Sequence record: PZ357121.2
Origin: a phage
DNA length: 64,000 nt
Strand: one strand, 5' to 3'
Below are positions 3,368 through 38,823 of this stretch, piece after piece. The position numbers and the translations under genes are program-made. The stretch's first letter is position 1. Every line of letters starts with the position of its first letter. The notes under the pieces are model-generated. The model was not told the origin of the DNA. It did no database searches and worked only from the letters and a program-made list of their open reading frames with translations.

Positions 3368-3938
3368 AAAAGTTTCGGATTTGTTCCCAATTCAGAGAAC
3401 GAAGATTATTACGAGAGTACTGAATTACTTCAATACCGGCTTGTTTAAGAATGTCTGCCCAATTTTCAGGAGATCTGTCATATAACTCAGCGTATACAAC
3501 CTTTTTAATACCTGACTGCGTAATAGCTTTAGTGCAATCAGGACATGGAGAAAGCGTAGTATATAACGTAGCACCTTCAATAGAATTACCTTTACGAGCT
3601 GCAAATAAAATTGCATTCAATTCTGCATGGATTTCGTTATTAGCAGACCATGCACTATGAGCAGCCCGATGTTCTTTAGCCAAAACAAAATTATCTGCCC
3701 GTCCAAATGCTGTAGTACCTTCTTTATGACCAGCAACGATGACCGGGCTTGGTTTATTCTTCAACCAACCGTTTTCGGATGCATGTTCGCAACAGTTTGT
3801 ACCACCTGAAGGAGAGCCATTATAACCTGTAGAAATAATGCGTCCATCTTTTTCAATGACTGCGCCAACTTTCCATGAACAACATTTTGATTCTTGAGAA
3901 ATCAGATATGCAATCTGAAGGTATGTGCTAGCTTTCAT
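3357..3938 (-). CDS. cd: dCMP deaminase
   Basis: 193 aa with zinc-dependent cytidine/dCMP deaminase motifs HAE (HAELNAILFAARKG) and PCxxC (SPCPDCTKAI); T4 cd position. Confidence 0.9.
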   Translation of the reverse strand: MKASTYLQIAYLISQESKCCSWKVGAVIEKDGRIISTGYNGSPSGGTNCCEHASENGWLKNKPSPVIVAGHKEGTTAFGRADNFVLAKEHRAAHSAWSANNEIHAELNAILFAARKGNSIEGATLYTTLSPCPDCTKAITQSGIKKVVYAELYDRSPENWADILKQAGIEVIQYSRNNLRSLNWEQIRNFCGE

Positions 3939-35120: not shown

Positions 35121-35152
35121 AAAAAAATGCACAAAAGGGAGCTTCGGCTCCC
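35121..35152 (-). terminator. intrinsic terminator downstream of gene 52
   Basis: gggagcttcggctccc (35137-35152) followed on the minus strand by TTTTGTGCATTTTTTT. Confidence 0.55.
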
Positions 35153-35228
35153 TAATCATGTTTGTCCAACCAATACAGCCAAATCACTAGTACAGCTATT
35201 GCACCGAGAAATCCTAAGGCTATGGCAC

Positions 35229-36554
35229 TCAAAGTGCCTCCAAGTCTTTAGTGTACTCTGTCACAACATCAGTAGACTTCCAATACTCATTTTCTTCTTT
35301 CTTAGCTTTAGCTTCTTCCGCTAGTTTACGTGCTTCGTCAGAAGTGATATGGAAGATGTTAAGGCCTACCAGTTTATCGACATGTTCTTTATACATTTCG
35401 ATTTGTGCTAGCTCTTCAGTCAAAGCTTTACGAGTCTTGCCCTGAATCACAATTTCGCCACTGATAACTTTTTTGATGAAGTGTGCCTTAGCAAAAGCCA
35501 GTTTAAATGCTTTTTCAGATTCAAGGATTTTGTTGTCAATACGTTTCTGAACGTAAGTCTTACGGACTTCAACAAAATCTTTGATTAAGTCCACTACATT
35601 ATCATAGACTGCTAATTTACCCTTTTCATTAATCACTGTGATGTTTTGTGAACGACGTTCGATGAGACTAAAATCTTTCATGATTTTTTCATGACGTAGC
35701 TCTTCATCATCAGGAAGCGAGTACTCTTTACGGAACTTCACCTTAAACCCAAAGCCGTGTTCACCGCAATCATCTTCCCATGAGATTAGACCTTTGTCTT
35801 CCAACGGGTCAAGAACCTTACTCACATACGTTTCACGGTCAAATTTATATGGGATTTCAGTTATCTGCATTTGAGTGCGAGATGTGAACTTATATGTTCC
35901 GTGAATCTCATAACGCCCATCAACTTCATGTACTTCACCACGGAATTCTGGGAATTCAACTTTTGGCTTAGTAACATTTTTACCTTGAAGAGCTTGTAAT
36001 ACAGCCTTTTTGACTGATTTAAAACTATGAGGCAGAATATTTGTTGCGTAACCGGTTGCAATACCAGAGACACCATTCAAAAGAACTGTCGGAATAATAG
36101 GAAGATAGAATTTTGGTGGAATGTGTTCTTTATCTTCATGAGCTGGAGCATATTCAGTATCTTTATATACGTTATAGAAATTTTTACTTACACGAGCAAA
36201 AATATAACGAGATGCTGCAGCTTTTTGGACTGTTCTAGAACCAAAGTTGCCTTGGCCATCTAACAGTGGATAGTTGTTGTTCCATGTGTTAGCCATCAAT
36301 GCACCTGCATCTTGTGCAGAGATTTCACCATGGTGATAACCTAAATCTGCAACACCGCCTGCAATTGACGCAAGTTTATGAAATTTTTCTTTATTACCAC
36401 GAGCCAAATCTAACGCACGATGAACCACAAAACGTTGAACCGGCTTAAATCCATCAATCATGTTTGGGATTGCACGGTTTTCAACGGTGTACATCGCATA
36501 TGCTAAGGCTTCGTTATCAATAATACTTTTTAGATTACGAGAATTCAATTGCAT
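35229..36554 (-). CDS. 52: DNA topoisomerase II medium subunit gp52
   Basis: 441 aa, GyrA-like N-terminus with active-site region (AMYTVENRAIPNMIDGFKPVQRF). Confidence 0.9.
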   Translation of the reverse strand: MQLNSRNLKSIIDNEALAYAMYTVENRAIPNMIDGFKPVQRFVVHRALDLARGNKEKFHKLASIAGGVADLGYHHGEISAQDAGALMANTWNNNYPLLDGQGNFGSRTVQKAAASRYIFARVSKNFYNVYKDTEYAPAHEDKEHIPPKFYLPIIPTVLLNGVSGIATGYATNILPHSFKSVKKAVLQALQGKNVTKPKVEFPEFRGEVHEVDGRYEIHGTYKFTSRTQMQITEIPYKFDRETYVSKVLDPLEDKGLISWEDDCGEHGFGFKVKFRKEYSLPDDEELRHEKIMKDFSLIERRSQNITVINEKGKLAVYDNVVDLIKDFVEVRKTYVQKRIDNKILESEKAFKLAFAKAHFIKKVISGEIVIQGKTRKALTEELAQIEMYKEHVDKLVGLNIFHITSDEARKLAEEAKAKKEENEYWKSTDVVTEYTKDLEAL

Positions 36555-36558
36555 ATTT

Positions 36559-36699
36559 TCACCATATTAATGAACGAATAACCATTATAACATCTGAAAT
36601 GAAAAGCACTACTTGGATTAGCCCAAACATCACACCGTAGTACAGAACCGTAAGCAAAAACAAGAGCCCGAAGGCTCCTGCTAAGATTTTCTTAATCAT
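36559..36699 (-). CDS. small hydrophobic peptide (46 aa), absent from the ORF track
   Basis: ATG at 36699 overlapping the stop of the upstream peptide (ATGA); single TM-like segment; stop 5 nt before the gene 52 ATG. Confidence 0.4.
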   Translation of the reverse strand: MIKKILAGAFGLLFLLTVLYYGVMFGLIQVVLFISDVIMVIRSLIW

Positions 36700-36845
36700 T
36701 GCTCGCCTTTTAATACGTTAAGAAGAGCTAAGACCGCTAAGGTACCTTGTGACACAGCCTGTTGAAATACTGTTGTTTCGCCTGTAACTAAAGTGTTAAC
36801 GAATAAAAACGACCAACACAGCAATGCAATAATCCATGCTACCAT
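36696..36845 (-). CDS. small hydrophobic peptide (49 aa), absent from the ORF track
   Basis: ATG at 36845 with GAGGTAATT RBS; predicted TM helix (MVAWIIALLCWSFLFVN); T4 has the 51-aa ac gene in this region. Confidence 0.4.
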   Translation of the reverse strand: MVAWIIALLCWSFLFVNTLVTGETTVFQQAVSQGTLAVLALLNVLKGEQ

Positions 36846-36897
36846 TTTAATTACCTCAAAAATAAATTAAAGGCCTAACTTAATAGGCCCGTATAAA

Positions 36898-37344
36898 TTA
36901 GTAACTCTGCAGAACGAATTTGAAATTATCTGCCAGAAGACGGTTCATTTCAGTGAGTGTTTGATATTCTGATGTATGATTGCGAGTGAATGCCAGAGCC
37001 AATTGTCCTTTACCATAACCAGTAGTCAGGGGTTTCATGTTCTTAGCTGCAACAAAGATTACATCATATTCAATATTGTTAGTGCCCATAGTACGGGCTA
37101 GTTGCGAACGGCCTTGACGAATGTGAGAAAGAATTGCATCCAACCCTTGTTTAGAACGTTGACGTCCTACAAAGAATCGTGCTGCTACTTGTCGCCAGTC
37201 AGATGAACCTTTAACAAAGAAGTAAAAACCTTCACGAGAACGAAACTCTTTAGAAACTTCAGAACCGTATTCGCCATTACGAACTACTGCAACAACTTCA
37301 CCGCCAACTGCCAGAAGGTCTTTACGAGTTAAATATTTGGACAT
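36898..37344 (-). CDS. ndd: nucleoid disruption protein Ndd
   Basis: 148 aa, high similarity to T4 Ndd as recalled (C-terminal ...[12 protein letters not shown]). Confidence 0.85.
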
Positions 37345-37680: not shown

Positions 37681-37791
37681 TTAAATTACATTAAAATATG
37701 TCAAAGCCAACCATGTTCCAGTGAACGAACATGCGATGTAAAACCCCGTATCACAAATTGTTCTTAGTACAATAAGAAGTGCATTTTTCAT
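37681..37791 (-). CDS. small hydrophobic peptide (36 aa)
   Basis: ATG at 37791 with GAGGTA RBS, translationally coupled (ATGA) to the upstream 28-aa peptide. Confidence 0.35.
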   Translation of the reverse strand: MKNALLIVLRTICDTGFYIACSFTGTWLALTYFNVI

Positions 37792-37874
37792 AAGTACCTC
37801 AATACAATTGAAAATATTATACAAATCATAGGGATACTAAGCAACCATATTCCGATCCACATTTTAGAGCTCAT
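37788..37874 (-). CDS. small hydrophobic peptide (28 aa)
   Basis: ATG overlapping the stop of ORF 37871-38134; sequence MSSKMWIGIWLLSIPMICIIFSIVLRYL. Confidence 0.35.
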   Translation of the reverse strand: MSSKMWIGIWLLSIPMICIIFSIVLRYL

Positions 37875-38202: not shown

Positions 38203-38823
38203 TTAAAGTTGAAGATACCACCCGTTGTAGTTGCTCTTGCGGACGATTTTCTTTAGGTCTTCATGGTCTCCCACGAACTTTATAGAATAAGAGAAGACGT
38301 CAGGTGAGGTTTCTTTGACATCTAATATAATAATGCAATCTGCGACTCGATGGTTCAAGAAGGGCCCTATGTTGATTCCGTTGCCGCCTGGATAATCACC
38401 ACTGTATCCTGTGGTAACAGAAATCCATTTAGAATCCATCTGATGTGTCTTGACTTCTACACGAATTCCACAATATTTGGGATGGGCCAACACGTCCCAT
38501 GCATACGTGTACGGGTCTTCTACGTCTTCAATACCTTTATTAACATATCCGTCTAGCCAATTTGCTACTACATACTCTGCAAAGACTGCAACCTTACAAC
38601 GTCGAACTACATCTTCTTTGTTTTGGTCTGGATTTTGGCTCAACGAATATCGAGCAGTGTCAGCAATCTTCACCTTCATTTCACTAGTCAAAAACTCATT
38701 CGACAGGATAAATGTCGGAAGACTCTTCAGTCTCAACAATCCCAAGTTCGTCTTTACCATAGATACCTCTGATGTGTAGTTCGCCAAAATAAATGCGGTC
38801 ACCTTCTTCAAGATATTCTGCAT
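38203..38823 (-). CDS. hypothetical protein in the denB position (possible nuclease)
   Basis: ORF in the position of T4 denB upstream of ndd; the track start is probably over-extended (internal ATG near 38679). Confidence 0.4.
   Translation of the reverse strand: MQNILKKVTAFILANYTSEVSMVKTNLGLLRLKSLPTFILSNEFLTSEMKVKIADTARYSLSQNPDQNKEDVVRRCKVAVFAEYVVANWLDGYVNKGIEDVEDPYTYAWDVLAHPKYCGIRVEVKTHQMDSKWISVTTGYSGDYPGGNGINIGPFLNHRVADCIIILDVKETSPDVFSYSIKFVGDHEDLKKIVRKSNYNGWYLQL

Follow-up and report, generated by a model that had tools for sequence, protein, structure and literature searches.

In bacteriophage T4, the interval between ndd (nucleoid disruption protein) and gene 52 (DNA topoisomerase II medium subunit) is occupied by very small genes, in the order ndd–stp (26 aa)–ac (51 aa)–52.1 (46 aa)–52. 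We describe here the corresponding interval in a stretch of 64,000 nucleotides (nt) of phage record PZ357121.2 (the window; all coordinates are counted from its first letter), in which two tiny overlapping open reading frames (ORFs), ORF49 and ORF46, lie between ndd and gene 52. The window very likely derives from a Mosigvirus, a T4-like phage, and the two ORFs very likely correspond to the known early T4 genes ac and 52.1, arranged as a unit ndd–ORF49–52.1–52.

The T4 genes have been studied to different extents. Deletion or mutation of ac makes T4 resistant to acriflavine, E. coli that expresses Ac becomes more sensitive to acriflavine and to ampicillin, and an inner-membrane location for Ac, with impairment of AcrAB-TolC, has been proposed by the same authors (2025 preprint, bioRxiv 10.1101/2025.06.30.662393), a proposal restated as an assumption in PMC13250531. 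A passage of PMC4120765, citing Wang & Ripley 1998, gives both frameshifts and substitutions in ac as causing resistance and treats the gene as a forward-mutation target. The RNAs of T4 ac and 52.1 are classed as early (PMC9697503 supplement). A literature search found no paper on DUF7396, the Pfam family of gp52.1.

The features of the window that make up this unit are as follows.
36696-36845, minus strand: ORF49, Ac-family small membrane protein of 49 aa (predicted two-helix hairpin), encoding MVAWIIALLCWSFLFVNTLVTGETTVFQQAVSQGTLAVLALLNVLKGEQ.
36559-36699, minus strand: ORF46, gp52.1 orthologue (DUF7396), modelled as a 46-aa hydrophobic helix, encoding MIKKILAGAFGLLFLLTVLYYGVMFGLIQVVLFISDVIMVIRSLIW.
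36696-36699, minus strand: ATGA stop/start overlap of ORF49 and ORF46, read from the sequence.
36853-36857, minus strand: Shine-Dalgarno GAGGT, 7 nt 5' of the ORF49 ATG, within GAGGTAATT, read from the sequence.
36552-36563, minus strand: 52.1 stop / gene 52 start junction, TGG TGA AAAT ATG, read from the sequence.
36898-37344, minus strand: ndd, upstream gene of the unit (Pfam Phage_T4_Ndd, E=4.9e-89).
35229-36554, minus strand: gene 52, downstream gene of the unit (Pfam DNA_topoisoIV, E=2.7e-77).

An earlier reading of the letters alone (the sequence-only reading) had described two ORFs of 49 and 46 codons linked by an ATGA and a strong ribosome-binding site before the first, and both points are borne out, the latter by the GAGGT. 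It had also placed them in an otherwise unannotated gap of 340 nt; the gap between ndd and gene 52 is there (343 nt, filled by ORF49 and ORF46), but both ORFs are already known genes (phrog_2501, phrog_3595 and Pfam DUF7396), and RefSeq HX01 is among several Mosigvirus records that annotate both, with some other records annotating one only. The 601 bases around the two ORFs are 100% identical to those of Mosigvirus phages ST0, DCP548 and ZQ3, and 95-99% identical to about 140 further records. Relative to T4, identity falls from 89% in gp52 through 72% in gp52.1 and 60% in Ndd to 37% in Ac.

The assignment of ORF46 is straightforward. The 72% identity to T4 gp52.1 extends across all 46 residues, the product matches Pfam PF24129 (DUF7396) from end to end (residues 1-46 on profile positions 1-46) with 79.3 bits, the cutoff being 27, and it matches phrog_3595 with E=1.7e-22. 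By tblastn, 52.1 is matched in 918 phage records, 904 of them at full length, and the motifs MIKK, LYYG, VLFISD and SL.W are invariant. The AF2 model is a single continuous helix of 44 residues (2-45; pLDDT 97). Hydropathy is high along nearly the whole length, so that the topology may be that of a single long, tilted helix or of a tight hairpin.

ORF49 is a more divergent relative of T4 Ac, with 37% identity over 35 aa (BLASTP, E=2e-7), and it matches phrog_2501 with E=2.9e-22. HX01, AV117 and many further records give the name 'acridine resistance protein' to proteins of its type, intermediates between ORF49 and T4 Ac carry the ac annotation, and profile searches recover the T4-, T6- and RB-type Ac proteins together with those of Mosigviruses. 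Full-length tblastn matches are present in 229 phage records; among 1.84 billion representatives clustered at 50% identity, the family as a whole accounts for 13 clusters, and it is confined to T4-like phages. The columns W11, T18, V26, Q29 and Q33 (ORF49 numbering) are invariant in the family, and G34 aligns with Gly38 of T4 Ac, where the substitution G38R inactivates Ac and gives acriflavine resistance (bioRxiv 10.1101/2025.06.30.662393). Searches of Pfam and NCBIfam gave no match for ORF49, the PF26944 model being outside the Pfam set searched; PF26944 is a precomputed Pfam label seen only on close relatives of ORF49.

The AF2 model of ORF49, built on a 31-sequence alignment, has helices at residues 2-21 and 27-45 joined by TGETT (pLDDT 82.5), and the hydropathy profile agrees with this hairpin. 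On this model ORF49 is an inner-membrane helical hairpin of about 50 aa with a conserved polar turn, TGETxV..Q..xQG. A Foldseek search of the PDB with the model returned only generic helical hairpins, the best at E=3.9. The single transmembrane-like segment that the sequence-only reading had given to each peptide thus has to be revised, as ORF49 is predicted to be a two-helix hairpin and ORF46 is modelled as one 44-residue helix that is hydrophobic nearly throughout.

The case that the two frames are genes rests on comparison. ORF length alone is not significant because many longer spurious ORFs exist in the window; the features of ORF49 and ORF46 that exceed chance are their conservation and codon-level selection. 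Counting by the method of Nei-Gojobori, 52.1 of the window and of T4 differ by 24 synonymous and 19 non-synonymous changes (pS=0.74, which is saturated, and pN=0.18), with similar values against other genera (pS 0.7-0.8, pN ~0.18). For the Ac type there are 14 synonymous versus 4 non-synonymous differences within Mosigvirus (pN/pS ~0.1), and pN/pS is 0.4-0.7 against other genera, where pS is saturated. By these codon comparisons both frames are under purifying selection. Frame conservation in relatives, which the sequence-only reading had named as the property to look for, is found for both. Ribosomes would pass from the one frame to the other, and the ORF49 and 52.1 peptides would be made together.

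We compared 32 loci between ndd and gene 52 from several Tevenvirinae genera, the window included, with ORFs extracted from 10 annotated and 22 IMG/VR loci. Gene 52.1 encodes exactly 46 aa in 32/32; its start ATGATTAA shares bases with the stop of whichever ORF precedes it in 32/32, in the form ATGA in the window, TAATG in other Mosigviruses and AATGATTAA in most others; and it ends TGG-stop, 4-8 nt before the ATG of gene 52, in 32/32. In the window GGTGA at the end of 52.1 can be read as a usable Shine-Dalgarno for gene 52. What lies immediately before 52.1 varies between loci, the gene there being of one of the following types: the T4-type Ac (...CIDASSVFSQALAQG...); the 'GETSV' Ac (...TGETSVFxQAxAQG...) of RB68, Gaprivervirus, Dhakavirus, Jiaodavirus and the Mosigvirus of the window; an unrelated 'VWxPGP' family of 46-55 aa; and, in some Jiaodavirus-like loci, a membrane protein of 57 aa. 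ORF49 has 45-53% identity to the 'GETSV' type (RB68, Aplg8, TH41) and 32% to T4 Ac.

The ndd-52 interval is a cassette in which tiny membrane-peptide genes are swapped; it can hold stp, two Ac subtypes, a 'VWxPGP' family of 53-55 aa and a 'FERxCKxxGxYK' family of 57-61 aa, and 52.1 is its sole constant gene (loci L005-L032). The window has neither the 57-aa nor the 53-aa membrane-peptide family of Dhaka-, Gapriver- and Jiaodaviruses. In Aplg8 (L007), Ac-family genes stand in tandem at 883-1038 and 1049-1207, one of the GETSV type and one of the T4 type; on account of these tandem copies, the two Ac subtypes may be paralogues with different targets.

Gene 52.1 carries an RNA hairpin within its coding region, and another lies in the spacer upstream of ORF49.
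36649-36682, minus strand: intragenic terminator-like stem-loop AGCAGGAGCC-UUCG-GGCUCUUGUU then UUUGCUUACG, at codons ~6-17 of 52.1, from a terminator scan.
36858-36890, minus strand: putative terminator hairpin GGGCCUA-UUAAGU-UAGGCCU (36890-36871) with tail UUAAUUUAUUUUU, from a terminator scan.

The 52.1 hairpin has a 10-bp stem, a UUCG loop and a fold energy of -16.3 kcal/mol (z=-2.3 versus dinucleotide shuffles), and it is a stable GC-rich stem-loop followed directly by a U-rich tract. Each of nine lineages was compared with 1000 synonymous recodings drawn from the phage's own codon usage. The resulting z is -4.8 in the window (0/1000 recodings as stable), -4.5 in T4, -4.2 in TH41, -4.0 in JS98, -2.95 in L008, -2.5 in L030, -2.4 in L032, -2.0 in L027 and -1.7 in L009. 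Calibration on 116 windows from six genes of the region gave a mean z of -0.08 with a standard deviation of 1.16, and among these control windows z falls below -3 only at the 5' end of ORF46. When the first 75 nt of 52.1 are folded, a GC-rich stem-loop forms at nt 18-54 in every lineage from unrelated sequences: GGGCUA-UUCAU-UAGCCC plus UGCUGCU-UUAUU-GGUAGCA in T4, GGCGGCAA-UGA-UUGCCGCC in Jiaodavirus and UAGCCAUC-CUUGU-GAUGGCUA in L030.

In 15 T4-like sequences, 6/7 pairs of the second stem vary and 105/105 cells are still paired, including one CG<->UA swap reached via Ala->Ile and Val->Ile changes. The support from covariation is modest, shuffles pairing 97.7% of cells versus 99.5% observed; the shuffle control is only slightly lower because most other stem changes are wobble-tolerant. 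Others have annotated a 'terminator' at this hairpin, in NBG1 (Mosigvirus) and G4507 (Tequatrovirus), records in which the 52.1 coding sequence is unannotated. We rejected codon selection of the U-tract, recodings of the same peptide (with its Leu, Phe and Ile codons) having a tail with as much U. Since the tail is no richer than the peptide dictates, it is the stem that is selected at the codon level, as judged from the recodings, and the terminator role is putative only. No Rfam family was matched in 36300-37100 at E<=1, and a literature search found no Term-seq or RNA 3'-end data for T4-like phages.

The spacer hairpin lies in the 52 nt between ndd and ORF49, the slot of stp in T4 and many relatives, and is directly followed by the ORF49 Shine-Dalgarno. 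Its fold energy is -11.4 kcal/mol, with a z of just -1.3 versus shuffles, and it too is annotated 'terminator' in phage NBG1. An early-promoter-like site (TGTACA-17-TATAAT) is present upstream of ndd at 37416-37388. Between ndd and gene 52 in the window no promoter-like site was found, nor any match to the MotA-type middle-promoter pattern TGCTTNA-N10-13-TANNNT, and transcripts of gene 52 therefore probably run through both hairpins. In T4 (L004) there is a MotA-box-type match, TGCTTTA-N10-TATATT, inside 52.1 upstream of gene 52 (3790-3812, minus strand), which has no conserved counterpart in RB68 or Aplg8. The window also has a perfect palindromic GC-rich hairpin, AGGGAGC-TTCG-GCTCCCT (35136-35153), between gene 52 and its motA-like gene and just upstream of an early-promoter-like site (35108-35081, minus strand).

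By homology with T4 Ac, ORF49 would, early in infection, insert into the inner membrane of the host and raise the cell content of cationic intercalators such as acriflavine. Interference with AcrAB-TolC efflux is the mechanism currently proposed for this, and for ORF49 we regard it as possible but short of an even chance. For gp52.1 the likeliest role, though one of low probability, is to act in the membrane together with the coupled upstream peptide; a partner role is suggested because 52.1 is constant and always coupled to an upstream member. At the RNA level, the hairpin in the 5' coding region of 52.1 probably attenuates or otherwise tunes gene 52 expression. A broader proposal, to which we give a low probability, is that 52.1 is dual-purpose across the Tevenvirinae, with the hairpin as a translation-sensitive attenuator of gene 52 and the peptide as the constant membrane partner of a swappable coupled peptide; ribosomes handed over from the upstream peptide gene would melt the hairpin and allow read-through into gene 52.

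Several points weigh against the assignment and the functions built on it. E. coli AcrZ is a 49-aa inner-membrane single helix that binds AcrB and aids efflux, and BLASTP gave no match between it and ORF49 or ORF46 even at E<=100. ORF49 is only 32-37% identical to T4 Ac and groups with the second Ac subtype, the one found in tandem with the T4 type in Aplg8. We found no report in the literature on acriflavine and a Mosigvirus, which, together with the difference in subtype, weakens the transfer of the acridine/efflux function to ORF49. The AcrAB-TolC mechanism is itself a proposal made in a preprint, and the pairing of gp52.1 with the upstream peptide as a heteromer is conjectural. Neither T4 Ac nor gp52.1 was detected by mass spectrometry of the T4 proteome (PMC9697503 supplement). 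A viable GT7-like deletion of T4 (165,257-168,510) removes ac, stp, ndd and the first two-thirds of 52.1 (PMC9712115), and there is therefore no essential role for ac or for most of 52.1.

Doubt about whether the frames are translated at all could draw on the undetected T4 homologues and on short ORFs of such length being common in the non-coding frames of the window, but chance ORFs in an intergenic spacer would not keep frames, lengths and coupling across genera in which synonymous change is saturated, nor match Pfam and PHROG families, nor give, in T4, the ac mutant phenotype from mutations inside the 51-codon ORF; the comparative data rule this explanation out, and we regard its probability as negligible. 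Nearly as improbable is a Stp-like role, in which the peptides would either set off or oppose an anticodon nuclease or a restriction system of the host. It has position in its favour, T4 stp lying within the ndd-52 interval, but Stp is hydrophilic and basic and ORF49 and ORF46 are hydrophobic, neither resembles it in sequence, and stp, where present, is an extra gene upstream of the Ac-type gene. No Stp homologue was found across the window, tblastn with the T4 and JS98 Stp giving at best E ~0.4-1, which is noise and located elsewhere than the two ORFs; with nothing above noise, Stp homology of ORF49 and ORF46 was rejected. The comparison with T4 ac and stp made in the sequence-only reading therefore holds in part, ORF49 being an Ac-family member at the T4 ac locus, but the T4 counterparts of the two ORFs are ac and 52.1, and its suggestion of host-interaction factors is reasonable because ORF49 is of the Ac family, without the stp analogy. 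Stp-like peptides were found by tblastn (92-96% over 25 aa) in NC_048181 (Raoultella phage RP180, 44.9 kb) and MG852086 (vB_EcoS-Ro145clw, 42 kb), small siphovirus genomes far from the T-even phages, with weaker matches in many Salmonella siphoviruses.

Two further explanations accept the genes and differ on what they do. The peptides may act in the membrane apart from drug efflux, for instance to dissipate or adjust the membrane potential, in superinfection exclusion or in lysis timing, with acridine sensitivity in T4 as a side effect. The ndd-52 interval, with its swapped tiny membrane-peptide genes, is typical of accessory host-interaction loci, the Ac family is restricted to T4-like phages, and acridines are synthetic, so that sensitivity to them cannot be a selected trait; but the peptides have no homology to holin, Imm, Sp or Rex-type proteins, Pfam, PHROGs and NCBIfam gave only the families named above, and neither the Foldseek search nor any experiment provides a pointer, and we consider this unlikely. 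The 52.1 frame may instead be mainly a regulatory leader, with transcription and translation of gene 52 dependent on ribosomes traversing 52.1 and with the peptide secondary. Here the hairpin is the leading argument, being codon-selected in all lineages tested (four at z -4.0 to -4.8 and five at -1.7 to -3.0, with the null calibrated) and flagged as a terminator by other annotators; moreover, the 52.1 stop always adjoins the gene 52 start, no promoter-like site intervenes between ndd and gene 52, and T4 gene 52 RNA is early with its protein classed as middle (PMC9697503 supplement). A pure leader ORF would not, however, hold pN so far below pS, and the peptide is strongly conserved, especially at residues 19-46 outside the hairpin, where LYYG, VLFISD and SL.W never vary; the U-tract holds no more U than the encoded residues require and termination is itself putative. 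We think a mainly regulatory frame improbable, and it is in any case compatible with a peptide function. The reading that we prefer is the one given at the outset, of an Ac-family gene and a 52.1 orthologue translated as a coupled pair upstream of gene 52.

Every gene in this part of the window is on the minus strand, in the order denB-like (38203-38823), several small ORFs, ndd, the 52-nt spacer, ORF49, ORF46, 4 nt and gene 52. Among the small ORFs are two more that are overlapping, tiny and hydrophobic (28 aa and 47 aa; 37681-37874, minus strand), which match HX01 gp199 and gp200 (ndd.2/ndd.2a-like), the counterpart of the 47-aa ORF being called at 36 aa in HX01. They belong with ORF49 and ORF46 to a cluster of predicted membrane peptides.

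ORF49 and ORF46 are two real small genes of a kind sometimes missed by annotation pipelines, and the names ac-like and 52.1 can be transferred to them. The Mosigvirus Ac subtype is distinct from that of T4, and the name should not be taken to bring the acridine and AcrAB-TolC story with it. Gene 52.1 is among the most constant tiny genes of the T-even phages (918 records) and is coupled on both sides, and its codon-selected hairpin is a candidate regulator of the gene for a topoisomerase subunit. Beyond what is already known of these genes, only this conserved hairpin and the unvarying coupling of 52.1 to both neighbours might be of extra note.

The locus can be set beside four described peptides. 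T4 Stp resembles ORF49 and ORF46 in being a small peptide (a 26-aa activator of the PrrC anticodon nuclease) encoded in the ndd-52 interval of many T-even phages, but it has no sequence similarity to them, is hydrophilic and not membrane-embedded, and is absent from the window. AcrZ is, like Ac, an inner-membrane peptide of about 50 aa, and Ac would, as AcrZ does, act on AcrAB-TolC if the preprint proposal is right; the likeness is one of functional analogy only, there being no detectable sequence similarity, and AcrZ, a single helix, promotes efflux, which Ac is proposed to impair. T4 gp52.1 shares with ORF46 its length of 46 aa, the MIKK, LYYG, VLFISD and SL.W motifs, a stop 4 nt before gene 52 and an RNA hairpin at the same codons; the two differ at residues 7-18 (AGAFGLLFLLTV versus GYSLALAALLVA) and in the hairpin sequence, the window having one 10-bp stem with a UUCG loop and T4 two shorter stems. 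T4 Ac shares with ORF49 its size, its two-helix membrane hairpin and the SV..Q..AQG motif, including the Gly of G38R, as well as an early-gene context and a position directly upstream of 52.1, which both overlap, ORF49 by the 4-nt ATGA and T4 ac by the 8-nt AATGATTAA. The turn is CIDASSV in T4 and TGET(T/S)V in ORF49, the latter form being common to RB68, Aplg8 copy 1, Gaprivervirus, Dhakavirus and Jiaodavirus.

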